Made by a program: the position numbers and the translations under genes
DNA from: Candidatus Roizmanbacteria bacterium RIFCSPHIGHO2_02_FULL_40_13b
Lineage (GTDB): Bacteria > Patescibacteriota > Microgenomatia > UBA1406 > HO2-37-13b
Direction of reading: 5' to 3'
DNA length: 64,000 nt
Assembly (NCBI GenBank): GCA_001789445.1
Contig: MFZQ01000003.1
Span: forward strand, 2,796-66,795
The notes under the pieces: generated by a model
The model's database searches: none
The model's input: the letters and a program-made list of their open reading frames with translations, nothing else
What the model was told of the DNA's origin: nothing
In this document: positions 11,773 to 63,912 of the stretch, piece after piece
Layout: every line of letters begins with the position of its first letter
Numbering within the stretch: position 1 is the stretch's first letter

Positions 11773-11796
11773 AAATTGCTAAATTGTTAAATTGTT
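11773..11796. repeat. Octamer tandem array (aaattgct aaattgtt aaattgtt)
   Basis: Three 8-nt units ending exactly at the ATG of ORF 11797. An AGGAGG box lies upstream of the array. Confidence 0.7.
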
Positions 11797-12840
11797 ATGA
11801 GTTTGTCACTTCTTTCATATTATTTTCGTAAAGTAGCTCCATTTGTTATTATCGGAGTTCTCATTTTTATTGGTATTTTTGGGATTACACGAGTATTTTT
11901 TTCGGTAAAGAAGACCGTGACGACTCCATCAACAATTAATAAACAGTTTGGTGCACTTGCACCTCCTATCTTCAACCATAAAATTGGGTATCCGGCGGGA
12001 GCTACATTTGCACTCGACAATATTGAGGGTAGGCCAACAACTGCAACAGATGAGGCGAAAGTCTATTTTATTCCCCCCATTGCGACAAAATTTGGATACG
12101 CACAAAAAATATATTCTATGGCTAAAAATGCAGGATTTAATACAAAAAACGTCTCATATTTTCTAGATGGAACACATGCAATATTTGAAGACTCCTTGCA
12201 AAAGATTACGATCGATATTTCTTACTTTAACTTTGAATATAAATATGCGTACGAAAATCACCCCGAACTTTTTTTACGTCCATCAGCAATCGACGAAACA
12301 ACAGTTAAAGAACGAGCCGCTGATTTTTTCCGACTCCTTGGAAAGTATCCAAATCAACTTTCACTGGGAACCCAAAATATCACGTATATGCATTACAACT
12401 CGGAAACAAAAGGACTTGACGTAGTGACAAATCCTAAATTGGCAAATGTTGTGGAAGTTGATTTTTTCCGAGCAGATATTCAAAACGGTGAACAAACGTA
12501 TCCAGTTGTGAGTCCAAAATATTATACATCTGAAAACTATGTGGTGATGACGCTTGACATAGTCTCTCCCAAGATAATAAAAGCACAAATGCATTTCTTT
12601 GAGACTGACGATACAAATACCGGTGTTTATCCGCTTAAAACTGGGGATGAAGCATGGGCGCAGTTTCTAGCCAACAAAGGTACAATTGTGACGCCTGGTG
12701 GAGGAAGCTATCCGATAACAATTAAGAAAATGTTTCTTGCATACTATGAAACCGATGTCTACGAATCATATTTACAACCACTGTATGTCTTTTTAGGAGA
12801 AAATAATTTCGTCGCTTATGTGTCGGCCGTTAAGAATTAA
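11797..12840 (+). CDS. Membrane-anchored hypothetical protein
   Basis: Single N-terminal hydrophobic span followed by a 300-aa soluble region with no motif. Confidence 0.5.
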   Translation: MSLSLLSYYFRKVAPFVIIGVLIFIGIFGITRVFFSVKKTVTTPSTINKQFGALAPPIFNHKIGYPAGATFALDNIEGRPTTATDEAKVYFIPPIATKFGYAQKIYSMAKNAGFNTKNVSYFLDGTHAIFEDSLQKITIDISYFNFEYKYAYENHPELFLRPSAIDETTVKERAADFFRLLGKYPNQLSLGTQNITYMHYNSETKGLDVVTNPKLANVVEVDFFRADIQNGEQTYPVVSPKYYTSENYVVMTLDIVSPKIIKAQMHFFETDDTNTGVYPLKTGDEAWAQFLANKGTIVTPGGGSYPITIKKMFLAYYETDVYESYLQPLYVFLGENNFVAYVSAVKN

Positions 12841-13793
12841 AGAGAGAGATATCCCACCGCCTGCGTAATCCAATTTACAATCATCTCCGTATCTGCAAAT
12901 CTATCAGCGCTTTTCATGATAACGATTAAGAATTCGTGACCATCATGTTTGTAAAAGGTGACGAGGTTTTCCCCCGCTTCTTCTGTATACCCCGTTTTGA
13001 GCCCTCCAATTCCAGCAATTTTACCAAGTAACTTATTTACATTTGTCAGATGATGAAAATGAATAAAGTCGACATCTGAAATCGTGATGTTCGGAGTTGA
13101 GACAATTGTTGAGAGAAGTTCGTTTTGCAAAAGTTTTCGACCAGCAAGTGATAAGTCAAACGGGGTAGTGTACTGGTTATTATTATCAAGCCCTGCTGAA
13201 TTTTCAAAATGTGTGTCTTTCATGCCTATTGCTTGAGCTTTTTCATTCATACGCGCTACAAATGCACTTCTTCCCCCAGAATAATTGTCTGCAATAACAA
13301 ATGCTACATCATTCCCGGAGTGAACAAGAAGTCCATACAAGAGCTCTTGCACACGAATCCGCTCGCCGGGAACAACTCCCACAACTTGGCCTTCCGTAAT
13401 GACATGACTAACCGTCAATACTTGTGTTGGTTTATACACATCAAGCGCAACAAGTGCGGTCATTATTTTTGCAGTTGAAGCCGGGAAAAAACGCACATGT
13501 TCATTCTTACTAAATACCGGAGTAGCTGAATCAGTATCGACGATATAGGCGCCTTGGGCTGTAATAATTGGTTTACTTCCTGCATTTTTTACAAATGGAA
13601 TTGGCGGCATTTTGAGCTTTGCAATTTTTTCTGTTGCGGCAAAAAGGCCTCGATTATAGCTAAAAAAATGAGAATAGTATCCATCTCCCATATAAAAAAA
13701 GAAGAGTGTTGCAAATAGAGCGATTAAGAAGATATGTCTGAAATAAATTTTTGTAGGAGTCTTACTACTTTTTTTCTTTTCTGCTGTGTCCAT
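12837..13793 (-). CDS. Serine-type D-Ala-D-Ala carboxypeptidase (S11 family)
   Basis: SxxK motif ASTAKIM, SxN motif HSGNDVA, KTG motif LKTGYT. Confidence 0.8.
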   Translation of the reverse strand: MDTAEKKKSSKTPTKIYFRHIFLIALFATLFFFYMGDGYYSHFFSYNRGLFAATEKIAKLKMPPIPFVKNAGSKPIITAQGAYIVDTDSATPVFSKNEHVRFFPASTAKIMTALVALDVYKPTQVLTVSHVITEGQVVGVVPGERIRVQELLYGLLVHSGNDVAFVIADNYSGGRSAFVARMNEKAQAIGMKDTHFENSAGLDNNNQYTTPFDLSLAGRKLLQNELLSTIVSTPNITISDVDFIHFHHLTNVNKLLGKIAGIGGLKTGYTEEAGENLVTFYKHDGHEFLIVIMKSADRFADTEMIVNWITQAVGYLSL

Positions 13794-15111
13794 GGTTAAA
13801 TGTCGGTAAATGTACGTCTACCCGTTCCATATCTCGAGGGAAAAGAGAGGCTTCTCGAACATTACTTAAATTGAGTAATTTCATTGTTATTCGTTCAAGC
13901 CCAAAAGAAAATCCACCATGTGGAGGCATTCCATATTTAAATGCTTGTAGATACATATGAAAATCGTCAGGATTCATTCCCTTCTTTTTAAGAATATCGA
14001 CAAGCTCTTGATAATCATCAATTCGTTGACTTCCACTTAGTATTTCTATTCCTCGGAAAAGTAAATCATAACTTAACGAGTATGTAGGATCTTTGGGATT
14101 TGGTTTTGAATAAAATGCTCGCTTTTCTGTAGGAAAGTGCGTAATGGTAACAAGGTCTGAAGCATGCGTCTCAAGTGCCCAAATTGAAATTTCTTTTTCA
14201 TCTTCAGGTTCAAGATCAGGCTCATGACGATTATCACGACCTGTTCGTTTAAAAATAATTTCTTGTGCTTCTCGTAGTGTAAGACGAGGTACTTTCGCAC
14301 TTAGTTTTGGAGGAACAACATTAAACTGTTCAAAGATTTCTGGATGCATTTTGGAAACATGTTCGAGCGTTTTCTTTCCTACTTCTTCAAGCGCATCTAA
14401 AAGTTCATCAAATTCAATAAATCCAAATTCACAATCAAGTTGTGTTGCTTCCGAAAGATGGCGAGTTGTCATTGAGGGTTCTGCTCGATATGCATGAGAA
14501 ATTAGATACACTCGTTCAAAAACAGGGACCATAATTTGTTTGTATAGTTGGGGACTTTGGATAAGAAATGCCTTGTAATCGTAATAATCTACATTAAATA
14601 CTTCAGCTCCACCTTCCGTTGAGGAAAAAGAGATTGTGGGAACAAATACTTCAACGCAACCAAGCTCTTGGGCGGCTTTGCGAAATCCAGCCATAACTGC
14701 TTCTTGGACGAGGAAAATTGAGCGAACTTTTGGATGGCGCAAGGTTAGCGCACGATAATCAAGTAAGACTGGCAACGTTACATCAAGCTCTTCTTTTCCA
14801 AAATCAAACGGAAGCGTTTGGGCTTTCGAGAGAACTTTATATTCGGCGCATTCTATCTCTATTTTTCCTGTTTTCACTTTCTCGTTGATCATATGCGCCG
14901 GTCGCTCTTTGACAACTCCGGTGATACATACAACGTCTTCGGGAGCAAGGGAGGAAAGTGAGGATTCACCAACGATCTGCACAATCCCACTTCGATCTCG
15001 AAGATCGACGAAGACTACTTTTTTATGATCCCGAATTGTATTGACCCAACCACAAACTTGCACCTCATCTCCAACTTTACTTACAATTTCTTCTATAAAA
15101 AGTTTTTTCAT
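13765..15111 (-). CDS. aspS: Aspartyl-tRNA synthetase, archaeal/type-2 form
   Basis: OB-fold N-terminus FVDLRDRSGIVQIV and class II motifs QSPQLYKQ, YRAEPS, GGFSFGLERITM. Confidence 0.9.
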   Translation of the reverse strand: MKKLFIEEIVSKVGDEVQVCGWVNTIRDHKKVVFVDLRDRSGIVQIVGESSLSSLAPEDVVCITGVVKERPAHMINEKVKTGKIEIECAEYKVLSKAQTLPFDFGKEELDVTLPVLLDYRALTLRHPKVRSIFLVQEAVMAGFRKAAQELGCVEVFVPTISFSSTEGGAEVFNVDYYDYKAFLIQSPQLYKQIMVPVFERVYLISHAYRAEPSMTTRHLSEATQLDCEFGFIEFDELLDALEEVGKKTLEHVSKMHPEIFEQFNVVPPKLSAKVPRLTLREAQEIIFKRTGRDNRHEPDLEPEDEKEISIWALETHASDLVTITHFPTEKRAFYSKPNPKDPTYSLSYDLLFRGIEILSGSQRIDDYQELVDILKKKGMNPDDFHMYLQAFKYGMPPHGGFSFGLERITMKLLNLSNVREASLFPRDMERVDVHLPTFNHGHSRKEKK

Positions 15112-18878: not shown

Positions 18879-19826
18879 TCAATACCCTACTTTTTCCACC
18901 AACATCCAGTCAATCAAATTTTTCATACTTGTATCATTGTGCTTTGTAACCAATCCTCGATAGCTTCCACTGTTTTCCAAATTAAGATACGTTAGTATTC
19001 TTTTCCGTAGCCGTTTTTGCAATCTCCGCATATTCGGATATATATCACAGCCTAAAAAATGTAACCCACTTGCTACTGGAATAATCAAGCTATTTTTATT
19101 ATTTATCGTAAGTTTCAAAATATTATTGATAAAAAAAGTTATCAGAATCTCATATTCTTTAGCAATTTGACTATTCTCTGCCACCACTAAAAAATCGTCC
19201 CCATATCGAAGGTACCCTAAAGGTTTTACCGTATGTTCAACAAATCGATCTAGTTCGTTAAGATAAATATTGGCAAAAATCTGGCTGGTAAGATTACCGA
19301 TTGGCATCCCGGTACCTTTTTCCTTGACATAGTAACTATCAACAATCCTGTCTATTATTTTTAATGCACCGCGATCAAATACCTTTCTTCTTACTGTATT
19401 TTTCAGTATTTTATGATCTACTGTATCAAAAAATTTAGTTATATCAGACCTCCAAACATACCCGTATCGATATTTTCCTAATAAATATTGTGTTCGTTCA
19501 ATTGCTCTCAAAAGTCCTTTTCCTTTGCGACATGACCACACATCGTAGATAAAAGATTTATCAAAAAGAGCGGTCAAGTATTCGTTTACTAATCTATGAA
19601 CAATCCTGTCCAGAATTGGAGCTACTGAAATGGTTCTTTTTTTCTTATCAGTAACTTGAAATGTTCGATATAATCCATGTTTGTAGGTGCCTGTTACTAA
19701 ATCATGGTGTACTTGTGAAAGATTTTCCTCAAGATTATAAGTAAAAATATCCATTTCCGTAGTTCTTTTTTTCCCACGTTGAAATGCCTGCCAGGAAAGC
19801 CAAATCTGTGATAAACTTACGTCCAT
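18879..19826 (-). CDS. DGR-1 reverse transcriptase
   Basis: Carries the RT motifs, including MPIGNLTSQIFANIY (the [IL]GxxxSQ signature of DGR RTs) and the catalytic YGDDFLVV. It is adjacent to a TR/VR pair. Confidence 0.9.
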   Translation of the reverse strand: MDVSLSQIWLSWQAFQRGKKRTTEMDIFTYNLEENLSQVHHDLVTGTYKHGLYRTFQVTDKKKRTISVAPILDRIVHRLVNEYLTALFDKSFIYDVWSCRKGKGLLRAIERTQYLLGKYRYGYVWRSDITKFFDTVDHKILKNTVRRKVFDRGALKIIDRIVDSYYVKEKGTGMPIGNLTSQIFANIYLNELDRFVEHTVKPLGYLRYGDDFLVVAENSQIAKEYEILITFFINNILKLTINNKNSLIIPVASGLHFLGCDIYPNMRRLQKRLRKRILTYLNLENSGSYRGLVTKHNDTSMKNLIDWMLVEKVGY

Positions 19827-20175
19827 GGATGCAACAACTCTTCCAGTTATAATGCTGTTATTTGATGTCTATAAACAAGTTACTACAATCAGTGTAAAAT
19901 TACCTAAAAGATGGAATTATGGTCTGGGAATTAGTATTGAGAAAAGTGTTCTTGAATGTCTTGAATATCTCGTTATGGCTAAAAACGCCCCGAAGCAGTT
20001 AAAATCAGCGTATCTTATTAAAGCAAGTGCTCATTTGGAAATGATACGGTTCAAACTGCGCTTAATTCTCGAAAATAAACTTGCCAACGAAACCATAATT
20101 TTTCAAACACAGGCAAACATTGCCGAAGCTGGACGAATGCTTGGCGGGTGGCTCAAATCGACACAAAGTACCTAA
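19825..20175 (+). CDS. avd: DGR-1 Avd-like four-helix-bundle protein, opposite strand to the RT
   Basis: KLPKRWNYGLG...EAGRMLGGWLKS matches the four-helix-bundle (23S rRNA IVS / Avd) family pattern. Its ATG overlaps the RT ATG in a CATG palindrome. Confidence 0.75.
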   Translation: MDATTLPVIMLLFDVYKQVTTISVKLPKRWNYGLGISIEKSVLECLEYLVMAKNAPKQLKSAYLIKASAHLEMIRFKLRLILENKLANETIIFQTQANIAEAGRMLGGWLKSTQST

Positions 20176-20178
20176 ACC

Positions 20179-20289
20179 TCTCACCGTGGGGGCAGTACCC
20201 CAATTACCATTCTGGTTATCAGGATTGTCTGCATTCAACTTCAACTGCCTATTGTCACGATTCCAGTTACCATTCGGCACGTTGCCCGT
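20179..20289 (-). repeat. DGR-1 template repeat (TR1)
   Basis: 111-bp copy of 20519-20629. All 17 differences are A in this copy on the minus strand. AAY-rich. Confidence 0.9.
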
Positions 20290-20503
20290 AGTATGACCCA
20301 ATGCAATCTTTGTACATAAAAGGTCGCAACCTTTTCGACATGATCCCGCTTTGCGGGAAGGAAACACTGGGCTCATCGGTGAGAGGTTCTAGGATTTTGA
20401 CCTAAAGAACCATACGGTAGCCCTGCCAAAGGCAGAGATGCTATTCACCGTGGTATAAAGTATAGAAAAAAAACAAAGATAAAAAAAGAAGAAAAGAAAA
20501 AGA

Positions 20504-21568
20504 TCAAACACCAATGAGTCTCACCGTGGGGGCAGTACCCCAAAGACCAAACTGGCTACCAGGAGTGCCTGCATTCAACTCCAACTGCCTAATGCCACGA
20601 AACCAGTAACCATCCGGCACGAAGCCCGTTTGTGGATCAACATTACCTATAAGCCATACTGCGCTTTGCTGATTCCACTCATATGAGACTTGTCCTGTTT
20701 CATGAAGGTGAACAGCAAAATCGGTGAGAAAATCTTCGATTGTTCTGCCTGTTTCGCCTGCATACATCGGACCACTAAGTGTTGTGAGATAATCGCGTGG
20801 AGTTGCATTGGTTGCCAGTTGTGTTCTTCCTCCAACCGTTTGTGCTTGATGTGGTTGAGGTAATATAACTGTTGGTTCATCAAATCGAATACTCCAGCCA
20901 GGAACAGCACAAATTCTTGGATCAGTTAGTATTGTTTTTCTGGTTCGTCCACCATGATCGTCAGTAAAACGTTCGGGGAAATATCTCAAACCTTGCTTAG
21001 TAAGAACCCCACGAATTCCATCCCATATCCAGATAGGGTCGGTCGTGTTGACCGCGGCAGGGTGGTCGGCTTCATTTTCATCTCGTTTGGAGAGAAGTAG
21101 GGTGTTTGCCTTTGATCGTGCTATTATAACAATAGCTTCAGTCTTTTTGAGGAGATGTGTGGTTGGAGCGGCAAATGGGGTTAGATCAAGTCTTGAGAAT
21201 CCTTGAGCAGTTTTTCGTTCTGCTAACTCTTGATTTTGCTCGCTACGAAGTATGTTGACAAATTGCTCTCGGGTTGGAATTGGGTATCTTTTTACAAAAC
21301 TATGTTCAGTAATTCCAGTTTCTGCAAGAGATGCAACTCGGGTTTCAAATTGATGCACCAGCGCTTCTTCGCGTTGTTCGGGAGACAAGACAGGTTCTGT
21401 AGTTGAAACATACACAACCTGTTCTTCCCATGGAAGGTCTTTCACAAGACCCCCTTCTTTGGCAGCTAGAAAGGTTTTGAGCGTACCTTCAAGAAATTGT
21501 GCACCGATTTCATTACCATCCTCTCTATGCGCCTCAATCGCCCGCATATGTTCACGTTCCATTGCCAT
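20504..21568 (-). CDS. DGR-1 variable target protein (354 aa)
   Basis: The C-terminal 37 codons are VR1. No signal peptide. GC richer than the flanks. Confidence 0.85.
   Translation of the reverse strand: MAMEREHMRAIEAHREDGNEIGAQFLEGTLKTFLAAKEGGLVKDLPWEEQVVYVSTTEPVLSPEQREEALVHQFETRVASLAETGITEHSFVKRYPIPTREQFVNILRSEQNQELAERKTAQGFSRLDLTPFAAPTTHLLKKTEAIVIIARSKANTLLLSKRDENEADHPAAVNTTDPIWIWDGIRGVLTKQGLRYFPERFTDDHGGRTRKTILTDPRICAVPGWSIRFDEPTVILPQPHQAQTVGGRTQLATNATPRDYLTTLSGPMYAGETGRTIEDFLTDFAVHLHETGQVSYEWNQQSAVWLIGNVDPQTGFVPDGYWFRGIRQLELNAGTPGSQFGLWGTAPTVRLIGV
20519..20629 (-). repeat. DGR-1 variable repeat (VR1)
   Basis: See TR1. It ends 15 nt before the target stop codon. Confidence 0.9.
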
Positions 21569-35612: not shown

Positions 35613-36632
35613 ATGCGTAAGATTGCAGTTGGGTTAAATGGATTTGGGAGAATTGGAAGAGCGTTTACACGAATTGCACTGAACAATCCCGATATTGAAA
35701 TTCGAGCGATTAATACTGCGCATTCAAACACAGAGATCCTCGCCCATCTCCTTAAGTATGACTCTATCTACCGAACATTTGATAAGGATGTTAGTGCAAA
35801 AGGAGATAAGATTATCGTTGGATCCCGCGAGATTGTCTGTTATAACCACAAAAACCCTGAAGAGATTCCATGGGACCACCATAATATTGATGTCGTCATT
35901 GACTGTACCGGCGCATTTAAGACACGTGATGATTTGAGCAAGCATCTACGCGCTACCGTGCAGAAAGTTATCGTCACCGCACCTGTTTCAGATGAAACAA
36001 TTCCTCATATTGTTTTGGGGTCAAATAGTGATGGGTTTGATTTTAAAGCTAAAAATGCCGATATTATCTCGAATGCATCATGTACCACCAACTGTGCATC
36101 AATTATGACAAAAGTTCTCGATGATAATTTCAAAATAAAATCAGCATTTTTAACAACCGTACATGCATATACCAGTAGTCAAGAACTTCTTGACAACGCA
36201 TCTAAAAATGAAACACGTTCTCGTGGGGCGCCACTTTCGATTATTCCGACAACCACTGGGGCTGCGGATGCAGTATGCAAAACAACCGCGTGTGAAGCTG
36301 GAAGCTTAGGAGCTATCGCATTTCGGGTTCCCGTACCCGTCGGATCAATCTCTGATATGACGTGTCTCCTCGAAAAATCAACAACGGTTGAAGAAATTAA
36401 TGAGGTATTTAGAAAAGAGTCGGAAGGAAAACTTAAGGGAATTTTAGGATATGAAAAAACCCCGCTTGTTTCTTCTGACTATATCGGCTCGCCATTTTCC
36501 TGTACATTTGATCCTAATTACACGCAGGTTTTGAATGGAAACTTCGTCAAAATCTTCGGGTGGTACGATAATGAGTGGGGATACTCAAACCGCCTGGTTG
36601 ATTTGATAGAAAAATTATCGAAATATATTTAA
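35613..36632 (+). CDS. gap: Glyceraldehyde-3-phosphate dehydrogenase
   Basis: GLNGFGRIGR, the active site ASCTTNC, and WYDNEWGYS. Confidence 0.92.
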   Translation: MRKIAVGLNGFGRIGRAFTRIALNNPDIEIRAINTAHSNTEILAHLLKYDSIYRTFDKDVSAKGDKIIVGSREIVCYNHKNPEEIPWDHHNIDVVIDCTGAFKTRDDLSKHLRATVQKVIVTAPVSDETIPHIVLGSNSDGFDFKAKNADIISNASCTTNCASIMTKVLDDNFKIKSAFLTTVHAYTSSQELLDNASKNETRSRGAPLSIIPTTTGAADAVCKTTACEAGSLGAIAFRVPVPVGSISDMTCLLEKSTTVEEINEVFRKESEGKLKGILGYEKTPLVSSDYIGSPFSCTFDPNYTQVLNGNFVKIFGWYDNEWGYSNRLVDLIEKLSKYI

Positions 36633-37708
36633 CTCCAAAACCATACATTGTTTTGCAATTCTTTTGATAAACGGTATGTATTCGCATGGCTCAAATATCC
36701 AATATACGACTGGAGCGACTGATCGAATGTTTTTGTATCAATTTTCTCTTTTAACTTAGAAAATACTCTTCTCTTTGTCTTTGTCCGCGGCAGGCGATAG
36801 TGAGGTAAAACAATGTATCCCAAAAAATCTATTCCCCATTCAAGTCTCCGGATAATTATTTTATTTTCATGAAGTGAAAGTTTTAGGTGATTACTTAGAA
36901 AATCTCTTATTTGTTCAATTACTTGAGATATCCGGCTTTGATTTTTGAATAATATAACAAAATCGTCAGCATACCGAATATAGTGGTGGATCTTCAACCC
37001 ATGTTTGACATACTGATCAAGTTCGTTCATGTAAATATTAGCAAACACTTGGCTTGTGAGATTACCAAGAGGGATACCACGTGGAGATTCTATCGTCCCG
37101 CCTGCGACGGGACTCCAGAATGACACATTTCTTGTCATCCTGGACCGGAGGCCGAAGGCCGTAGGGATAGGATCCCAATTCACCTCAAAACTATCAATAA
37201 CCTCTGAAAGAAGTCGAATACTATTTTCATCTTGTATCTTCTTTGCAAGTAACTTTTTAAGAATCTCATGATCAACACTGGCAAAGAATTTATTGATGTC
37301 TAAATGAAGCGCCCAGCAATCTTGCGTATAGTTCTTGGAAACTTTACGGGTAAAAACTTCCAGTCGAGAAACTGCTTTATGAGTTCCTTTATTTAATCTG
37401 CATGAATAAGAGTCTGTGATAAATATTTTGTCAAAAAGTTGGTACAAATATGTGTACAACAAATGATGTACTACCCGATCCTGGACACTCGCTTTATGGA
37501 TATGTCTGCGCTTTGGATCATTAACATAGAATGATTCATATGAACCGTGTCTATATTTTTTAGTAACAAGATCTTGATATAGAGCAAAAAGATTGTCTTC
37601 AAGGTACCGCTCAAAAAGCTGGACATCTTTTTTACCACCCTTTCCCTTCCTAAATTCACCCCATGCACGAAAAACACTGTCCAGACTGACTAATGTGTTA
37701 TAATCCAT
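36629..37708 (-). CDS. DGR-2 reverse transcriptase carrying a ~28-codon repeat-element insertion
   Basis: IPLGNLTSQVFANIY and RYADDFVILF. It aligns with RT1 except for the extra NWDPIPTAFGLRSRMTRNVSFWSPVAGGTIESP. Start moved to MDYNTL because the upstream ATGACA is an element terminus. Confidence 0.85.
   Translation of the reverse strand: MDYNTLVSLDSVFRAWGEFRKGKGGKKDVQLFERYLEDNLFALYQDLVTKKYRHGSYESFYVNDPKRRHIHKASVQDRVVHHLLYTYLYQLFDKIFITDSYSCRLNKGTHKAVSRLEVFTRKVSKNYTQDCWALHLDINKFFASVDHEILKKLLAKKIQDENSIRLLSEVIDSFEVNWDPIPTAFGLRSRMTRNVSFWSPVAGGTIESPRGIPLGNLTSQVFANIYMNELDQYVKHGLKIHHYIRYADDFVILFKNQSRISQVIEQIRDFLSNHLKLSLHENKIIIRRLEWGIDFLGYIVLPHYRLPRTKTKRRVFSKLKEKIDTKTFDQSLQSYIGYLSHANTYRLSKELQNNVWFWS
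37100..37176. mobile_element. Palindromic repeat-element insertion inside RT2
   Basis: tccagaatgaca/tgtcatcctgga 12-bp inverted repeat plus a ggccgaaggcc core shared with the elements at 37718 and 55751. Absent from RT1 at the aligned position. Confidence 0.65.
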
Positions 37709-37717
37709 ATCTAAATT

Positions 37718-37763
37718 TGTCATTCCCGCGAAGGCCGAAGGTCCTCGTAAGGGGACGGGAATC
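37718..37763. mobile_element. TGTCAT/GGCCGAAGG MITE-like element between RT2 and avd2
   Basis: tgtcattcccgcgaaggccgaaggtcctcgtaaggggacgggaatc. Same termini and core as 55751-55826. Confidence 0.65.
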
Positions 37764-37795
37764 TATATAACATATGTCGAACAGTAACGAAGGTT

Positions 37796-37820
37796 CACAC
37801 ACACACACACACACACACAC
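37796..37820. repeat. (CA)12 dinucleotide microsatellite
   Basis: A 25-nt run of cacac...c read directly, between an ATG (37774) and the avd2 reading frame. Confidence 0.95.
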
Positions 37821-38179
37821 TGCGTGAGTTTGGCTTAGATATTCCCATATTCGGTGTATTATACGAGTTTTATAAATTGTTGTATCAATATACCAAGTTT
37901 TTCCCAAAAAAAGATCGGTACTCTCTCGGAAAAAAGATTGATACACTCGCACTTAGCCTAATTGAATTAGTCATTTTCGCAGGTAGCACGTCAAAAGAAA
38001 AGAAGCTTCCATATATCCAAAAGGCCATAGTTTCAGTTGACCTTATAAAAATTTTGCTTCGAGTTGCCAAAGATATTGATGCTCTTGAAGGCAAAAAATA
38101 CATCGTTCTTCAGCAAAACCTGCAGGAAATAGGAAGGCAGCTGGGAGGATGGAAAAAATCCATCCCCCCGCTTCTATAA
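37820..38179 (+). CDS. avd: DGR-2 Avd-like four-helix-bundle protein, start unresolved
   Basis: FFPKKDRYSLG...EIGRQLGGWKKS. Gap-free alignment with Avd1 extends 13 codons upstream of the first canonical start (TTG 37877), as far as the codons just downstream of the CA tract. The 37820 start (CTG) is nominal. Confidence 0.65.
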   Translation: MREFGLDIPIFGVLYEFYKLLYQYTKFFPKKDRYSLGKKIDTLALSLIELVIFAGSTSKEKKLPYIQKAIVSVDLIKILLRVAKDIDALEGKKYIVLQQNLQEIGRQLGGWKKSIPPLL

Positions 38180-38192
38180 AACAAGAAACTAT

Positions 38193-38313
38193 CTCGGAAC
38201 GACCACCTACATTCGGATTGTGATTGCCAGGATTCCAATTCGTATTGACATTCAGGTTACCGTCGGTATTGCGATTCGCATTCACGACGCGGTCCTCATT
38301 TCGCGAACCAGGC
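38193..38313 (-). repeat. DGR-2 template repeat (TR2)
   Basis: 121-bp copy of 38629-38749 encoding the Asn-rich RVVNANRNTDGNLNVNTNWNPGNHNPNVGGRSE. 26 of 34 mismatches fall at TR adenines. Confidence 0.85.
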
Positions 38314-38616
38314 GCCCATTCCAGTACCAAACGCCGTAGACACTCACCATCCTTCGATTGCTCCCCGGATTGTATTTTATTTGTCCCCCACCAGCTGGCG
38401 GGGAATCAAGCATCTGGCACGGAGTGTCTTGTTTTTCTCGTGTACGCTCAGGTACCGTCTGGTACCTAACTCTGACACGTTGTTTGAAAAACAACAATTT
38501 CGGTGTCCCTCCACCCACGGGCAGATGGAACCATTGACCTACTTTCAAAAGGTATTTTAACAGAAAAAAGGAAGTTCAAAGGAGAAAAGAAGCACAAAGG
38601 GAACCAAGTTATAAGC

Positions 38617-39399
38617 TCATTTTACTCCCTCGGAACGACCACCCATCGTCGGATAGCGATCGGCAGGCGCCCAAGCCGCATCGACGCACAGGCGACCGCC
38701 AGTAAGGCGACGCGCATCCACGACACGACCCCCACCCCGCGAACCAGGCAGACGGCTCCAGGTATTTATGTCAGGGTATACTCCTGTACGATCATGAAGT
38801 TCTTCACCAAAAACAATATATGTGTCTACTGTCATGCCATGCACACCCTGTTCTTGAATAGCCTGTATAAGTTGTGCTTCAGTAGTATCAAGATGTGGGG
38901 AATCAGCGCTGTCTTTTACCACTAGCCAACCAGTGCGTTCTTGTTCATTTTTGAGCGTATTACCGGGTTCCACCGTCCAGCTTTGCAAGTGTGGGTGAAT
39001 GACACCAAGATGTTCCCGTGTGACACCCTCTGGACGATAGATAAGCGCCCATCCGTCCTCGTGTAGTTGTTGTAGCTCTTCTTGGGAATAGTTACAAGGA
39101 GCAATCTCTACTGTAAGCTCGGCTCGGGGAGCAAGAATATTCCATCGGTTTGTCCAGTATGCTGTATACCTTTCAGGGGTTTTGACTCCTTCAGCACTGA
39201 ATTCTGTAGCAAGTGCAACGAGAGGATCAACTACAACTGCTTCTGGCGTCACATCTGATCGAGATAGTTCCTCAATTTGTCGGGCAAGAGCATTATGAGC
39301 TTGGGCTATATGAAGAAGTCCTTCAACAGCCAAGCGTTGACTATCGTTTTCAGGTAGCTCCGCAAGATTTTGTAATAGGTCCTGTTCTGCACGAAACAT
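38617..39399 (-). CDS. DGR-2 variable target protein (260 aa)
   Basis: The C-terminal ~40 codons are VR2. No signal peptide. GC-rich relative to the flanks. Confidence 0.8.
   Translation of the reverse strand: MFRAEQDLLQNLAELPENDSQRLAVEGLLHIAQAHNALARQIEELSRSDVTPEAVVVDPLVALATEFSAEGVKTPERYTAYWTNRWNILAPRAELTVEIAPCNYSQEELQQLHEDGWALIYRPEGVTREHLGVIHPHLQSWTVEPGNTLKNEQERTGWLVVKDSADSPHLDTTEAQLIQAIQEQGVHGMTVDTYIVFGEELHDRTGVYPDINTWSRLPGSRGGGRVVDARRLTGGRLCVDAAWAPADRYPTMGGRSEGVK
38629..38749 (-). repeat. DGR-2 variable repeat (VR2)
   Basis: See TR2. It ends 9 nt before the TGA stop. Confidence 0.85.
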
Positions 39400-39408
39400 A
39401 TTCTTCCT

Positions 39409-39436
39409 ATTATAACAGCCTTTTTCGACTTGTCAA
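39409..39436 (-). promoter_or_regulatory. Consensus sigma70-like promoter of the DGR-2 target
   Basis: Minus strand reads TTGACA-N16-TATAAT-AGGAAGAAT-ATG. The -10 box, leader and start are identical to those of the DGR-1 target. Confidence 0.6.
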
Positions 39437-39567
39437 ATACAGTATTTCTTATTGGAGGCGAGGAGGAGGAGATAGGGAGATGGGGTGGGGCGGAGGAGAT
39501 GAGGAGTAGAGATATACAGAGAGGAAGACTTTCTGCTTATCTCCCATCCTCTATTCTCCACTCCTCT

Positions 39568-39626: not shown

Positions 39627-41387
39627 ATGTGCGGAATTTACGGTATTGCAGATAAAAATAAATTTGGGGCGCAGGATATTGTTAATGGGCTAAAACAGCT
39701 TGAGTATCGAGGATATGATAGTTGGGGAATTGCAGTGACGACCGACTCGCTTGTTAAGATTGATAAGCATACTGGAAAAATAGGAGAGGCCCGAAGTATC
39801 TTGCCAGATTCAACAACCGCAATCGGACATACTCGGTGGGCAACGCATGGTGGTGTAACTGACGAAAACGCCCATCCGCATACGGATTGCAAAAAAGATT
39901 TAGCAATAGTTCACAATGGAATTGTTGAAAACTATGAAGATCTTCGCCAAACACTCTTAAAAAAGAATCACGCTTTTACTTCTCAAACTGATACCGAGGT
40001 AGTTGTGCATTTAATTGAAGAGTATATGAAGAGCGAAAGCTTTGAGTTAGCTTGTCAAAAAGCCTTTAATGAACTCATCGGCTCAAATGCAATAGTGGTG
40101 ATGGATAATGGCTCAAAAAGCATCTTTGCCGCACGTTTGGGCTCTCCACTCGTTATCGGAAAAGGCACAGATAAATACTTTATTGCTTCTGATATAACCC
40201 CATTTTTGGACCAGACTCGAACCATATATTTTCTCGACGAGGGAGAAGCTGTGTTGATCAAAAACGACAAGTGCATTTTCTATAAAACTAAAACAGGAAA
40301 AATATTTACCCCTTTATTTGCTCAAACAACGATTACAAAAGATGCCGTCAGTAAAGGAGAATTTCCCCATTTTTTTATCAAAGAAATTTATGAACAAGTC
40401 ACTACAATTCCAAAAACAACTAAAATCGATAGAAAAGATCTTGAGAGTGTAGTTTCTGAAATAAAAAAAGCAAAAAAAATAATACTGTTAGGCTGTGGAA
40501 CTGCGTATTATTGTGCAGTCGGATCCAAATATTATTTTGCTAAGTATGGAGTTGATGTGTCGGCATACCAGGCTTCTGAATTCACCCCATTTTTAGAGAC
40601 AATAGACGAAAATTCACTCGTAATCGCTATTTCTCAAAGTGGAGAGACAGCAGAAACGCTTGAGACAGTGAAGTATTCACTTGAAAAAGGAGCTACTGTC
40701 ATTGGAGTTGTTAACGCACGAGGGTCAAGCTTAGAGCGAATCGCAACGATGGTTATTCCCGTAGGTTCTGGCCCGGAAATTGCCGTTGTTTCAACGAAAG
40801 CATTTAGCGCCCAACTCGCCGTTTTGTACCAAATCGCACGCGCATGTAACGGAGAGCTTGAGAACGGTCGGAAAGATATTGAAGAGTACGGAAAAAAACT
40901 AGGGGCGTGGCTCAATGAGCGTACTTTGGATTCGATTAAAGAGCTTGCACAGAAATTAATAAAAACTCCGCATGTATTTGTAATTGGACGTGGAGTCGAA
41001 TACCCATTTTGTTTGGAGTTTGCACTAAAAATAAAAGAAGCGTCCTATATTCATGCAGAAGGATTTGCGGCAGGAGAACTCAAACATGGAGTAATTGCGC
41101 TTATTGAAAAAGGAACTCCATGTATTGTGCTTTGTTCTCACGATGAGGAATATCCACCAATCTTATCAACTGCGGCGGAGTTGAAAAGCCGGGGAGCGTG
41201 GATTATTGGAGTTGGACCGAAAAAAGCAAAAGAATTTGATACTTATATACAAACATTTGGCGCAGGTTCTTTAACTGGACTCACTGCAGTTGTTGCGGGG
41301 CAACTTTTGGGCTATTATATGGCACTCTTTCAAGATCTTGATCCCGATAAACCACGAAATTTAGCAAAATCAGTGACGGTAAAATAA
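39627..41387 (+). CDS. glmS: Glutamine-fructose-6-phosphate aminotransferase
   Basis: MCGIYGI N-terminal nucleophile, two SIS domains, C-terminal KPRNLAKSVTVK. Confidence 0.95.
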   Translation: MCGIYGIADKNKFGAQDIVNGLKQLEYRGYDSWGIAVTTDSLVKIDKHTGKIGEARSILPDSTTAIGHTRWATHGGVTDENAHPHTDCKKDLAIVHNGIVENYEDLRQTLLKKNHAFTSQTDTEVVVHLIEEYMKSESFELACQKAFNELIGSNAIVVMDNGSKSIFAARLGSPLVIGKGTDKYFIASDITPFLDQTRTIYFLDEGEAVLIKNDKCIFYKTKTGKIFTPLFAQTTITKDAVSKGEFPHFFIKEIYEQVTTIPKTTKIDRKDLESVVSEIKKAKKIILLGCGTAYYCAVGSKYYFAKYGVDVSAYQASEFTPFLETIDENSLVIAISQSGETAETLETVKYSLEKGATVIGVVNARGSSLERIATMVIPVGSGPEIAVVSTKAFSAQLAVLYQIARACNGELENGRKDIEEYGKKLGAWLNERTLDSIKELAQKLIKTPHVFVIGRGVEYPFCLEFALKIKEASYIHAEGFAAGELKHGVIALIEKGTPCIVLCSHDEEYPPILSTAAELKSRGAWIIGVGPKKAKEFDTYIQTFGAGSLTGLTAVVAGQLLGYYMALFQDLDPDKPRNLAKSVTVK

Positions 41388-45475: not shown

Positions 45476-45581
45476 ACTGTATATCCGGGACTGATTATTT
45501 GTCATCTCGATATGATGAATAGCCAGTCCTGGATATGCACACTCGGTGCAGATCTATATAAACGGACAGAAAGGTTACACC

Positions 45582-46538
45582 ATGAACGTGCGCTTTTTTC
45601 GCGCGATCTCGGTCGTTGTCCTTGCCGGGTTTCTTGCGCTTGTCGCAACTGGCTTTGGTACCGCTACCGCGTACGCGCAGTCCTCCCCACAGTGCCCGCG
45701 CGTCGAGCATCGATCCGACCCGTTCAGCCCGCTAAAAACAACTAGCGGATGCACTATCGTCGGCGTACTCAATTCGATCTCAGCGCATAGCGTGTACCAT
45801 CCACCGGACCGTGCAACGCACCTTGTCGTTCAAGAACACTCAGGTATTTGGAGATTGCTTGCTCCCGTGCATCTACGCACGGTCGACTTCTCTCGAGGGT
45901 TTCTGAACTGGGGAGACAAAGGAGTCGAGGTTCTAGCGCTCAACTGTGCAACTGGTCCACAATTCGACCGCGATTTTACCTTACGTTTTGTGGGCAGCAG
46001 CGACCTTTGGGTCGATGCAGAGCAGGAGCCACACGGCTTAAATCGTAATACCGGTCCTGCCAACGGGAATATAGTCGTAAGTCCCAACTGCGTCAGCGTA
46101 GGAGATGCGGTGTCGCCCAATTTGACGCCCGTACCTACCCCCACGCCACCGGACCTCGACCACTTCAAAGGCGAACTGCTACTTATTTACAGCCCCGCCT
46201 GCGTAATGTGCAGATGTCCTGTACAAGTGGCTGTCGTCAGGAATCCGCCGATTGCACTCCGGTTCGGCTCGAACATTGAGATCCACGGTGGATACACTTG
46301 TCCGGATAGTGTACTAGCGGAAGCAGCCTGGCTCGTTCGGAATGGCGCCTACCCGGTTGCTCCGGAGATGTTGGTGAGGTTCTTGCCAACCTACACACCC
46401 GCTCCTAGCACCACGACGACCGCAACAAGTACACGAACACCAACTCGGGCGCCAACCCAAACGTCCACCAGAACATCAACACCGGCGCCGACAACGCAGC
46501 TGTTAAAGCACATCTTCCTACCACAGCTAGACGACTAG
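45582..46538 (+). CDS. High-GC secreted protein with Thr/Pro-rich tail
   Basis: Signal peptide MNVRFFRAISVVVLAGFLALVATGFGTATAYA. About 58 % GC in a counted 60-nt sample versus about 38 % in the flanks. C-terminal TTTTATSTRTPTRAPTQTSTRTSTPAPT. Confidence 0.6.
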   Translation: MNVRFFRAISVVVLAGFLALVATGFGTATAYAQSSPQCPRVEHRSDPFSPLKTTSGCTIVGVLNSISAHSVYHPPDRATHLVVQEHSGIWRLLAPVHLRTVDFSRGFLNWGDKGVEVLALNCATGPQFDRDFTLRFVGSSDLWVDAEQEPHGLNRNTGPANGNIVVSPNCVSVGDAVSPNLTPVPTPTPPDLDHFKGELLLIYSPACVMCRCPVQVAVVRNPPIALRFGSNIEIHGGYTCPDSVLAEAAWLVRNGAYPVAPEMLVRFLPTYTPAPSTTTTATSTRTPTRAPTQTSTRTSTPAPTTQLLKHIFLPQLDD

Positions 46539-51352: not shown

Positions 51353-51406
51353 TTAAATTGCTAAATTGCTTTTCAACAATTTAATAATTTAACAGTTTAA
51401 CAATTG
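51353..51406. repeat. Octamer array, two forward and four inverted units
   Basis: ttaaattg ctaaattg cttttc aacaattt aataattt aacagttt aacaattg. Confidence 0.7.
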
Positions 51407-53548: not shown

Positions 53549-54222
53549 AGTCTCTTTAACTTTTTAATTGCAGCCACTTGTAAAAGAGTTGTAAGAACAG
53601 TGAAGTATATCAATGCTCGAGTATCTAGGAGCCCCCGTTGAAATTGTTCATAATAGTAAATGGGGGAAATAATAAATAAGGAATCGTTAAGAATAGTTGG
53701 AATAAATAATAAAAAAATAACAACTACTGAAATTAAAAAAACGACAACTTGATTTTTGCTAAAAAGGGAAAAAAATTGGGTAATAGATAAAAATAGTATC
53801 GTTAAGAAAAAGGCGCCGAGATACTGACAAAGTAACAGACCAACGGTTACTTTCCCTAAAAAGAATAGACTTATTGGAACAGAGAGTGTTAATAAAAATG
53901 CAATCGTAAAACAAATTGAAACTGCAATAAATTTTGCTAAAACGATGATTTCTTCTTTTACTGGCAAACTTAAAAGCGTTTCGAGCGTTCCTGCTTTTTG
54001 TTCTTCAGAAAACACTCGCATCGCAAGTGCTGGCACAAAAAATAACAGTAGAAAAGGAATCATATCAAAAAAAGGTCGCATAGATGTATCATCGCGTAAA
54101 AAAACATCTTTCATAAAAAGAAAGTTTGCGATGATTGCAAACAAACATACGACTATATATCCGAGCGGGTTTTTAAAATAAAACGAGAGTTCTTTTTTTA
54201 TTAAATTGTTAAGTTGGTTCAT
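53545..54222 (-). CDS. ABC-2 type permease
   Basis: Six hydrophobic spans with SEEQKAGTLETLLSLP. Confidence 0.7.
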   Translation of the reverse strand: MNQLNNLIKKELSFYFKNPLGYIVVCLFAIIANFLFMKDVFLRDDTSMRPFFDMIPFLLLFFVPALAMRVFSEEQKAGTLETLLSLPVKEEIIVLAKFIAVSICFTIAFLLTLSVPISLFFLGKVTVGLLLCQYLGAFFLTILFLSITQFFSLFSKNQVVVFLISVVVIFLLFIPTILNDSLFIISPIYYYEQFQRGLLDTRALIYFTVLTTLLQVAAIKKLKRL

Positions 54223-54250
54223 TGTTAAATTGTTAAATTGTTAAATTGCT
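54221..54250. repeat. Octamer array in the 18-nt gap between the ABC ATPase and permease genes
   Basis: attgttaaattgttaaattgttaaattgct spans the ATPase stop codon and the permease start codon. Confidence 0.7.
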
Positions 54251-55694: not shown

Positions 55695-55710
55695 GATAGT
55701 ATTATAATGG

Positions 55711-55740
55711 TTAAATTGTTAAATTGCTAAATTGTTAAAT
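55711..55740. repeat. Octamer array upstream of trmD
   Basis: ttaaattg ttaaattg ctaaattg ttaaat, abutting the MITE-like element at 55751. Confidence 0.7.
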
Positions 55741-62592: not shown

Positions 62593-63912
62593 ATGGCTTC
62601 TCGCATAAATAGTATTCTGGTCTTCCTACTTCTTCTTTTCCTCCCAACCCAACTCGGAAAACACTTCTTCATGGATTTTTCGTTCATAAACGGAGTACGC
62701 ATCGATTATCTTGCTCCAACGTTCTATTTGGTAGACATACTCGCTCTTTTACTCATCGCTTTTAACTGGAAAGTAATATGGAGGAAAATTGTTAAATTGT
62801 TAAATTGTTATATTGCTACATCGTTAAATTGTTTGATTGGTCTTCTGTTACTGGTTGGGATAAATGTGATAGGTGCAAAGGAACCCATGATGGGGCTATA
62901 TGTGGTGGGGAGGTTGGTGGAGATGTATGCGTTGTTTGTGGTGTTTAGTGGGAGATCCCGAAACGAGTTCGGGATGACGAAGGGGTCGTTTGGGATGACA
63001 GTTTTAGTGCCACTCTTTATTGGATCAGTCGTTGAGCTCTTTTTATCGCTTTCCCAGCTTATCACCCAGCATTCTTTGCAAGGAATCTTCTATTTTTTGG
63101 GAGAACGAGCGTTTAGTGTGAGTACTCCGGGAATTGCGACAATATCTATGTTTGGAAACCAGGTTTTGCGGGCATATGGCACATTTTCGCATCCGAATAG
63201 TATGGGAGGATTCTATTTGCTCCTCTACGTATTTGTGTTGTTCACACCGAGATTCTTCTCCCTCGACTTCGCTCGGGATCAGAATGACAAGGAGGTGGGA
63301 TCCCGAAACAAGTTTGGGATGACGACTTTACTTCGTTTTGGAATATTGGTGATATCGAGCTGTCTTATTCTGATTTCTTTTTCCAAGGTCGCGATTGTGT
63401 GTTTTGTACTCGTTAATGCGTATTCTTCACTGAAAGAGCTGAAGCTTGACTGCCGGTTTTGTAAGTTTGCGAGGGTATTTATTTTAGGAGTAGTTTCTCT
63501 CATATTCTTAAGTGGACAATCTGACATTTTGTCATGGGATAAACGAGTATTGTTGATAAAACAATCATTTGAATTAATAGCACAACATCCTTTATTTGGT
63601 GTAGGTCTGGGAAATTCCCTATATTACCAATCGGGGCTTTTGAGCAAGCTTCCGTACTCATTTATACAACCAGTCCACAATATTTTCCTTCTTTTTGTAA
63701 CAGAAGTTGGAATAGTTATTACCGGAGCAATCGTTTATCGGATGTGGAGATCCCGAAACAAGTTCGGGATGACTAGTATGAGAATAGTATTGCTCGTTAT
63801 CGTCATAACGGGATTTTTCGACCATTACTGGCTAACACTCATTCAAAACCAGATACTGATAGGAGTTATTCTCGGAATGTGTATGAGGTATCCCGAAACA
63901 AGTTCGGGATGA
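62593..63912 (+). CDS. O-antigen ligase (Wzy_C)-like polytopic membrane protein riddled with repeat elements
   Basis: Many TM spans, GTFSHPNSMGG and QPVHNIFLLFVTEVG ligase-like motifs. The frame stays open across three type A hairpin elements, one CAGAATGACA element and an octamer array. A fourth type A copy supplies the TGA stop codon. Confidence 0.65.
   Translation: MASRINSILVFLLLLFLPTQLGKHFFMDFSFINGVRIDYLAPTFYLVDILALLLIAFNWKVIWRKIVKLLNCYIATSLNCLIGLLLLVGINVIGAKEPMMGLYVVGRLVEMYALFVVFSGRSRNEFGMTKGSFGMTVLVPLFIGSVVELFLSLSQLITQHSLQGIFYFLGERAFSVSTPGIATISMFGNQVLRAYGTFSHPNSMGGFYLLLYVFVLFTPRFFSLDFARDQNDKEVGSRNKFGMTTLLRFGILVISSCLILISFSKVAIVCFVLVNAYSSLKELKLDCRFCKFARVFILGVVSLIFLSGQSDILSWDKRVLLIKQSFELIAQHPLFGVGLGNSLYYQSGLLSKLPYSFIQPVHNIFLLFVTEVGIVITGAIVYRMWRSRNKFGMTSMRIVLLVIVITGFFDHYWLTLIQNQILIGVILGMCMRYPETSSG
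62787..62840. repeat. Octamer array inside the ligase-like ORF
   Basis: aaaattgt taaattgt taaattgt tatattgc tacatcgt taaattgt ttgattgg, translated as KIVKLLNCYIATSLNCLIG. Confidence 0.7.
62954..62999 (+). mobile_element. Type A hairpin element plus a half copy, in frame
   Basis: gatcccgaaacgagttcgggatgac followed by gaaggggtcgtttgggatgac, translated as RSRNEFGMTKGSFGMT. Confidence 0.7.
63267..63323 (+). mobile_element. CAGAATGACA-type repeat followed by a type A hairpin element, in frame
   Basis: cttcgctcgggatcagaatgaca, then gatcccgaaacaagtttgggatgac, translated as GSRNKFGMT. Confidence 0.7.
63749..63773 (+). mobile_element. Type A hairpin element, in frame
   Basis: gatcccgaaacaagttcgggatgac, translated as RSRNKFGMT. 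Confidence 0.7.

Follow-up and report, generated by a model that had tools for sequence, protein, structure and literature searches.

Intragenic simple sequence repeat (SSR) contingency loci are classical switches; examples are the (CAAT)n tract of lic1A and the (AGCC/AGTC)n tracts of mod ('phasevarions') in Haemophilus influenzae and the homopolymer tracts of Neisseria and Campylobacter. Such loci have been the subject of surveys (PMC5084427, PMC3315296 and PMC4965091). Diversity-generating retroelements (DGRs) are also well described. According to Wu et al. 2018 (PMC5758913), 90% of the DGRs found in candidate phyla radiation (CPR) bacteria have architecture B3, a template repeat (TR)-(avd)-reverse transcriptase (RT) order with avd on the reverse strand, and in the Bordetella phage DGR Avd is essential and its association with the RT is required for retrohoming. 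Here we report on avd2, the accessory gene of one of two DGRs (DGR2) in a stretch of 64,000 nucleotides (nt), hereafter the window, from Candidatus Roizmanbacteria bacterium RIFCSPHIGHO2_02_FULL_40_13b (contig MFZQ01000003.1, positions 2,796 to 66,795). The leader of this gene contains a CA microsatellite, and we consider it probable, from the arrangement of start codon, repeat and reading frames, that translation of avd2, and hence activity of DGR2, is subject to slipped-strand phase variation. To our knowledge, the natural control of DGR activity is largely unknown, as is the reason why many metagenome DGRs look inactive.

Start codon and reading frames of avd2

Tandem Repeats Finder detected a perfect repeat at 37796-37820 of the plus strand (period 2, 12.5 copies, 100% matches), which is the sole dinucleotide array in the window, and an SSR census found no other non-homopolymer repeat of at least 14 nt in the 64 kb. 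An earlier, sequence-only reading had described this tract as (CA)12; it is present where that reading placed it, but is more precisely (CA)12 plus one C. The repeat begins 22 nt past an ATG at 37774, whose translation, MSNSNEGSHTHTHTHTA*, is of the MSNSNEGS(HT)n type and stops at TGA 37825-37827. The avd2 frame itself is open from 37751, between TAA 37748 and TAA 38177-38179, and reads ...HTHTHTHTLREFGLDIPIFGVLYEFYK-L(TTG 37877)..., with no ATG, GTG or TTG upstream of TTG 37877. The distance from ATG 37774 to TTG 37877 is 103 nt, which is 1 mod 3, and a gain of one CA unit or a loss of two joins the leader to the avd2 frame with no stop between them. Thus, with 10 units the open reading frame (ORF) encodes 133 amino acids (aa), with 12 units it ends after 16 codons and with 11 units after 20 codons, and 14 units are out of frame by arithmetic. 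A non-triplet perfect repeat lies inside an ORF, 3' of its start codon, and depending on the number of units this ORF is either full-length or truncated, as in SSR translational phase variation. All of these elements had been proposed in the sequence-only reading (the missing canonical start, the short leader ORF, the spacing and the fusion by one added or two lost units) and each was reproduced; the fusion also occurs in nature, in a 10-unit contig with an uninterrupted 133-aa ORF.

The same reading had argued that the N-terminus of Avd2 lies upstream of TTG 37877 on the ground that Avd2 aligns without gaps to Avd1 (MDATTLPVIM...), the product of the other avd gene of the window, in this region, and the alignment was reproduced. 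ATG 37774 is the predicted true start of avd2. The leader peptide MSNSNEGS that follows it also opens the intact 133-aa Avd of the 10-unit allele and resembles the MTNSKEES of the closest homologue (P0001). Starting at this ATG, the N-terminal sequence is MSNSNEGSHTHT..., whereas a start at CTG 37820 would give (M)LREFGLD.... In public annotation the product starts either at TTG 37877, with 100 aa, or one codon later, at 37880, with 99 aa; the latter is OGK27961.1 at NCBI (a Candidatus Roizmanbacteria metagenome-assembled genome).

Tract length in sister contigs

Sister contigs were retrieved from ENA, JGI and Logan assemblies by exact-protein look-up with the RT of DGR2 (RT2), a 359-aa variant call of RT2, the neighboring GAPDH and the 100-aa Avd call. 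Seventeen distinct records of this Roizmanbacteria lineage span the tract, and their consensus sequences show four lengths: 12 CA units in 10 records, including the window, 11 units in three and 14 units in three, all of them out of frame, and 10 units in a single record (L007), which is in frame. For the 10-unit contig the gene caller gave a 133-aa Avd from the predicted ATG, MSNSNEGSHTHTHTLREFGLDIPI..., so an in-frame allele, as required for a switch, does exist. Outside the tract and the variable repeat (VR), the sister contigs are 99.7-100% identical to the window; one of them (L004) additionally diverges over ~470 nt at the 5' end of glmS. Variation of tract length in near-clonal natural populations, a central expectation of the sequence-only reading, was therefore observed, and near-identical genomes differ in tract length as in known phase variation. 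That reading had expected 10, 12 and 13 units; the first two were seen, but 13 was not among the sister contigs, which have 11 and 14 instead. Different assemblers arrived at the same lengths (10 records with 12 units; 3 records, from three pipelines, with 14 units), and this recurrence speaks against assembly noise.

Two further pairs of contigs from other lineages differ by exactly one gap, corresponding to one CA unit that toggles the frame: L095 and L096 (14 and 13 units) have 0 mismatches over 2717 nt, and L031 and L130 (8 and 9 units) have 0 mismatches over 4354 nt. A pair with (CA)6.5 was invariant. Another candidate pair, L097 and L104, was rejected as within-lineage evidence because its members are only ~91% identical. 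A cluster of seven contigs (P0056), considered as a further polymorphic lineage, was also rejected; it proved to be repeat-free with a near-invariant 5' region and was used as a control from the same studies. The avd 5' region in this control lineage was invariant in 6 of the 7 contigs, and in the seventh the only differences lie upstream of a run of N.

Survey of related avd loci

With in-frame Avd2 as the query, 73 homologues were retrieved from 5.8 billion proteins. All of them, like Avd1, can be aligned across the segment ahead of TTG 37877. Many of these (~50-76% identity) start with M-x(3-8)-HTHT(HT)-LPEFGLDIPIF, and this leader, shared by in-frame repeat-bearing relatives, supports an N-terminus of Avd2 upstream of TTG 37877. 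In Daviesbacteria proteins the leader position is occupied by (GQDRT)3-4, and one protein has (TDRQ)n. At the DNA level, this position contained (GGACA)9 in L011, (CA)10 in L012 and (ACAG)7 in L013, with the repeats beginning ~22-27 nt after the ATG.

Two collection scans with patterns derived from the avd body, leader excluded, detected 160 loci; as the patterns came from the body, the survey is unbiased toward repeats. Of these loci, 139 were distinct and had enough upstream sequence. They were grouped into lineages at 95% or higher nt identity, and a locus was counted as repeat-bearing if an SSR occurred in the 130 nt upstream of the sequence encoding DIPIF. Sixty-two of the 139 loci, representing 56 lineages, were repeat-bearing, and non-triplet repeats at the homologous site in 56 lineages are a wider finding than had been proposed from the window. 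The repeats include (CA)6-14, poly-C of 8-13 nt, (ACAG)n, (ACAGA)n, (ACAGG)n, (AATC)19 and (GA)17. Their units are 2 nt (32 cases), 1 nt (12), 5 nt (8) or 4 nt (4) long, and never 3 or 6 nt, and tract lengths across lineages are 13-79 nt. Across the 139 loci, non-triplet SSRs of at least 14 nt have a density of 2.66/kb in the 130 nt before DIPIF versus 0.065/kb elsewhere, a 41-fold difference, so chance does not explain the tract.

Two loci have units that are not of the C/A type: (AATC)19.8 in L101 (Ga0209514_10000029) and (GA)17.5 in L131 (Ga0209515_10000006). Both tracts lie ~60-90 nt before DIPIF of avd and are out of frame.

The organization around the repeats is conserved. A leader ATG at most 35 nt upstream and open into the repeat was present in 60 of the 62 repeat-bearing loci, compared with 31% of control positions, and leader peptides (e.g. 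...K[DE][IS]) are alike in in-frame and out-of-frame alleles. Eighteen of the repeat-bearing loci are in frame and 44 out of frame; a change of exactly one unit would bring each of the 44 into frame (23 by loss, 21 by gain). The avd body is intact in 43 of them, with a median of 111 codons as in in-frame and repeat-free genes, and these alleles are therefore not decaying pseudogenes. Moreover, codons between repeat and DIPIF vary mainly at third positions among out-of-frame alleles (L023, L099, L128), which suggests that this segment is under protein-level selection even though it is beyond the reach of canonical starts.

Repeat-free relatives, which where named belong mostly to Parcubacteria-type groups, offer a comparison. 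Orthologues lacking the tract might have had the same short N-terminus, which would have spoken against a switch; instead, an in-frame ATG lies no more than 60 nt away, immediately upstream of helix 1, in 75 of the 77. A divergent RT adjoins avd in 60 of the 62 repeat-bearing and in 75 of the 77 repeat-free loci.

Predicted structure of Avd2

The avd2 body matches Pfam bAvd (PF22296, E=3.5e-18; residues 15-114 on profile positions 8-106 of 107). An AlphaFold2 model for which the family alignment served as input (mean pLDDT, the predicted per-residue confidence, 85.7) has four helices, at residues 23-39, 44-70, 73-99 and 105-128, with residues 1-19 disordered. In this model the leader and His-Thr run form a floppy tail that can plausibly tolerate length change. 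In the full-length protein, residue 34 is the one at TTG 37877; it falls within helix 1, and a product started there would lose 11 of the 17 residues of this helix. A functional product from TTG 37877 is thus implausible according to the model, in agreement with the sequence-only reading, which had doubted this codon as a start.

Composition and probable recent activity of DGR2

DGR2 has the components expected of a DGR: an RT, a TR/VR pair with adenine-centered differences and a VR at the 3' end of the target gene, where VR2 lies in the last 130 nt of a 260-aa ORF. Since avd2 (bAvd) lies on the reverse strand between TR and RT, the architecture is B3. In the 120-nt core of TR2/VR2, 26 of the 34 differences are at TR adenines; on the plus strand they are overwhelmingly T-to-N, corresponding to adenine mutagenesis of a minus-strand template. 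No differences were seen in TR2 among the contigs in which it was readable; L007 has a run of N at this place. In contrast to this constancy, VR2 occurred as four alleles in the sister contigs, and among the first three of these, 31 sites vary, 27 of them at TR adenines. Four VR alleles within a clone suggest that DGR2 was probably active recently. VR allele 1 was found with 12 and 14 CA units, allele 3 with 10, 11 and 12, and 14 units with alleles 1 and 4; VR alleles and tract lengths are thus shuffled, and both sites are hypervariable on a clonal background.

RT2 is 36% identical to RT1, the RT of the other DGR, and has a 29-residue insertion relative to it at residues ~181-209 (NWDPIPTAFGLRSRMTRNVSFWSPVAGGT...), just before the conserved G(I/M)P(L/I)GNLTSQ. 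A GC-rich inverted repeat with arms TCCCGCGAAGG...GGGGACGGGA is located immediately upstream of the RT2 ATG, 9 nt ahead of the avd2 ATG. It has no match in Rfam and does not occur in L011 and L013, in which RT and avd start codons abut on opposite strands.

A model for phase-variable avd2

We propose that translation would start at ATG 37774 and cross the (CA)n tract eight codons later. If n is 1 mod 3 (10, 13, ...), an Avd of the 133-aa class would be made, with a disordered Met-x7-(His-Thr)n tail; if n is 11, 12 or 14, the ribosome would stop after 16-20 codons and no full-length Avd would result. An out-of-frame cell would have at best the TTG 37877 product or a trace from a near-cognate codon and, to judge from the structural model, would be without functional Avd. 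Slipped-strand mispairing at replication would change n by single units, reversibly and heritably. By analogy with the studied DGR, in which Avd must associate with the RT for retrohoming, DGR2 would require Avd, and for this reason the tract would set DGR2 ON or OFF. In a population, most cells would then have a frozen variable region and a minority would be diversifying. The window carries an OFF-frame allele, one added unit from ON.

Every prediction of the sequence-only reading that could be checked computationally held, and an ON/OFF role of the tract, as first suggested there, is supported. We further infer switching at some rate within populations, an effect on retrohoming and selection for the arrangement. 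The same putative device is found, judging by the surveyed loci, across a large clade of CPR DGRs. More broadly, and only somewhat in preference to the contrary view, we favor the idea that in DGRs of Microgenomates-type CPR bacteria a selected hypermutable repeat in the avd leader acts as a heritable stochastic ON/OFF switch, with about two-thirds of consensus genotypes OFF and one slippage step from ON, and with rare ON cells diversifying. In such DGRs the tract might also co-set RT expression, given that the starts of RT and avd abut on opposite strands.

Several observations weigh against phase variation of avd2 or narrow what it could mean. The tract lengths in the 17 contigs are assembly consensus values, compared between contigs and not within one sample, and some samples may be represented by more than one contig through re-assembly. 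Of 61 alleles, 18 are in frame, which matches the one-third expected if frame is irrelevant (p=0.59); this fits fast neutral switching and equally a frame-indifferent or non-coding leader. The codon after (CA)n is CTG in 14 of 16 CTN cases, whereas CTG makes up 10% of CTN codons in the genome (p ~1e-12), and this post-repeat CTG is at ~-18 from DIPIF, the ATG position of repeat-free relatives. A weak CUG start (CTG 37820) or re-initiation after the leader ORF could make the switch one between high and low rather than on and off. Most units are C/A-rich (CA, C, ACAG, ACAGA, ACAGG), and this bias could reflect a sequence-specific role beyond repetitiveness. Finally, 8 non-adenine differences from TR2 are common to all four VR2 alleles (L001-L009, L181 and L182 compared); an example is GGACCGCG in the TR against GGGTCGTG in the VR. 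A recent copy from TR2 does not explain them, as it should have erased them, and a search for a second TR copy that might do so found none in the window.

Alternative explanations

Avd2 might be made at any tract length, by a near-cognate start (CTG 37820), by re-initiation or by polymerase or ribosome slippage, in which case the repeat would be an unstructured 5' leader or enhancer whose length at most tunes the level. The chance-level in-frame fraction, the excess of CTG after (CA)n and its coincidence with the start of repeat-free homologues all favor such frame-independent synthesis; in addition, the leader TGA at 37825 is 5 nt past the CTG, which allows re-initiation, and TATAAT-like boxes 5-15 nt before ~1/3 of the long genes, with no Shine-Dalgarno sequence, may indicate unusual initiation in this organism. 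However, only ~16-20 of the 62 repeat-bearing loci have a Leu/CTG codon at this place, and poly-C, ACAG, ACAGA, ACAGG, AATC, GA and many CA loci precede other codons. CTG 37820 was therefore rejected as a general start and kept for the (CA)n-CTG subset. Frame-independent synthesis also leaves the conserved upstream ATG and leader peptide unexplained. Units of 3 and 6 nt are avoided, bacteria generally initiate poorly at CUG, and slippage has not been established for heteropolymeric repeats of 2-5 nt. We regard this explanation as unlikely, although it is the strongest competitor of a phase-variable avd2.

A second possibility is that the repeat acts on the opposite strand, as (UG)n in the RT promoter or 5' untranslated region or in a TR-antisense-avd-RT transcript, modulating RT expression or the DGR RNA; the avd frameshift would then be a by-product or a second effect. 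The tract lies 25-100 nt upstream of the RT start codon, the divergent RT adjoins nearly all repeat-bearing loci (with back-to-back starts in L011 and L013), the B3 architecture, as given in PMC5758913, places antisense avd between TR and RT, and a sequence-specific function would agree with the C/A bias of the units. Yet the repeat-free relatives have the same divergent layout, so the RT does not need the repeat, and L012 keeps (CA)10 without an upstream RT. No promoter-like site was found by a sigma-70 promoter and terminator scan of 37500-38700, no sigma-70-like hexamers flank the tract, and tracts of 13-79 nt far exceed a promoter spacer; a promoter-spacer SSR switch was rejected on these grounds. 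A structured RNA was also rejected: the best hit of an Rfam scan of 36500-39500 (E<=1) was a chance match of 15 bits against a gathering score of 65, and folding of the minus-strand RNA of 37700-37880 gave z=0.02, with no global structure and only a local GC hairpin. A role on the opposite strand thus appears decidedly improbable.

Far less tenable still is a neutral microsatellite in a frameshifted avd2 pseudogene of a decaying DGR. This would account for the out-of-frame state of the window allele and 16 of the 17 sister contigs and for the 8 non-adenine TR/VR differences, but it conflicts with the intact avd body in the window and in 43 of the 44 out-of-frame alleles of other lineages, with the recurrence, at 41-fold enrichment, of non-triplet repeats at an identical codon position across 56 lineages, with four adenine-patterned VR alleles on a clonal background and with the existence of an in-frame allele. 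We give almost no credence to sequencing or assembly artefacts at a low-complexity tract as the source of the length differences, because, although dinucleotide and poly-C tracts are generally prone to PCR (polymerase chain reaction) stutter and the contigs were assembled from short reads, independent assemblers and samples repeatedly gave the same lengths, the flanks are error-free, and short tracts that are easily sequenced, such as (CA)6.5-8, (CAGA)4.5 and (ACAGA)5, are out of frame as well.

Other features of the window

Coordinates of the features discussed are listed in Table 1. The avd1 gene of the second retroelement, DGR1, is free of repeats and has an ordinary ATG start, which overlaps the start codon of RT1 within a CATG at 19824-19827. 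One apparently constitutive DGR (DGR1) and one predicted repeat-gated DGR (DGR2) are thus present in the genome.

Table 1. Positions of DGR2, DGR1 and avd2 leader features in the window
Feature	Position	Strand	Remark
ATG and 8-codon leader MSNSNEGS of avd2 (predicted)	37774..37797	+	last codon TCA runs into repeat
(CA)12+C microsatellite, proposed slipped-strand switch	37796..37820	+	in frame = (His-Thr)n
TGA closing leader ORF in 12-unit out-of-frame allele	37825..37827	+	
avd2 body, Avd frame	37820..38179	+	LREFGLDIPIF... to TAA, intact
TTG, first canonical in-frame start in out-of-frame allele	37877..37879	+	
DGR2 reverse transcriptase RT2	36629..37723	-	Pfam RVT_1, E=2.1e-22; divergent from avd2
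GC-rich inverted repeat TCCCG...CGGGA	37731..37765	.	between RT2 start and avd2 ATG
Template repeat TR2	38188..38313	-	sense on minus strand
Variable repeat VR2	38624..38749	-	3' end of target gene
DGR2 target gene, 260 aa	38617..39399	-	no Pfam match
RT1	18879-19826		DGR1 (18879-21568), B3 layout
avd1	19825-20175		DGR1
TR1	~20176-20290		DGR1
VR1	~20518-20630		DGR1

For approximately 8 of the 23 long ORFs, among them those at 13765-15111, 20504-21568 and 39627-41387, a TATAAT-like box precedes the start codon by only 5-15 nt and a Shine-Dalgarno sequence cannot be seen. This arrangement points to a large number of short-leader or leaderless mRNAs in the organism and bears on initiation at avd2.

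Tandem arrays of an 8-nt unit (AAATTGTT / TTAAATTG and complement), with 3-6 copies, occur at five sites (11773-11797, 51375-51405, 54201-54248, 55706-55740 and 62786-62850), of which at least the first directly precedes the start codon of a long ORF. Finally, 45500-46500 is a GC-rich island (54-58% GC vs ~38% around it) with a 330-aa ORF (45546-46538) that has a signal-peptide-like N-terminus and a Thr/Pro-rich tail; the island may be foreign DNA or a mis-join.

Implications

If avd2 is indeed phase-variable, a genotype visible in reads would predict whether a cell lineage diversifies its target protein. As this genotype can be read from sequencing reads, the prediction is testable in existing time-series metagenomes of uncultured CPR bacteria. 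The arrangement would represent a two-tier evolvability device, in which the cost of a powerful targeted mutator is kept in check by a mutational switch that is cheap and reversible, and engineered DGR systems may borrow such a tunable stochastic gate. There is also a consequence for annotation. Automated gene calls of these avd genes are truncated or absent (here 99-100 aa or none), so DGR surveys probably under-count or mis-score them.

Comparison with known systems

We found no link between DGRs or avd and repeat-mediated phase variation in the full-text literature that could be accessed, although a mention in Paul et al. 2017 (Nat Microbiol 2:17045), reportedly the main survey of CPR DGRs, cannot be excluded. 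As far as the accessible literature goes, no published description of the combination was found, and it appears to be new.

Among DGRs, the Bordetella phage BPP-1 element (mtd-avd-TR-brt) shares a four-helix Avd with DGR2, and the available account of that element is the basis, by analogy, for equating an Avd-less state with OFF. Unlike DGR2, it has all genes on one strand, and no repeat or stochastic switch has been described for it. The closer relatives are the B3 DGRs of CPR bacteria, which like DGR2 have an RT, a bAvd, an adenine-specific TR/VR pair, a VR at the 3' end of the target and an inverted avd between TR and RT. In the available text of the survey of these elements (PMC5758913), however, no avd repeat or cassette switch is described, and within the window avd2 has a predicted hypermutable leader whereas avd1 does not.

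Among repeat-based switches, dinucleotide repeats between or within two divergent genes are found both here and at hifA/hifB of H. influenzae, where (TA)n between divergent promoters sets the -35/-10 spacing. The avd2 tract differs in lying inside a coding leader without flanking hexamers, and lengths of 13-79 nt are incompatible with a spacer.

The resemblance to intragenic SSR contingency loci is much more extensive: a perfect non-triplet repeat is located a few codons past the predicted start codon, gain or loss of units would switch avd2 between full-length and truncated forms, tract length differs between near-identical strains and each out-of-frame state is one step off. Three differences set avd2 apart. 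The unit type turns over between lineages (1, 2, 4 and 5 nt) while its position is fixed; the hosts are uncultured CPR (Microgenomates-type) groundwater bacteria and not host-adapted pathogens; and the gated gene encodes a hypermutation accessory protein instead of a surface protein or a modification enzyme. Since the gated gene is part of a targeted mutator, one mutational switch would here control another mutational system.

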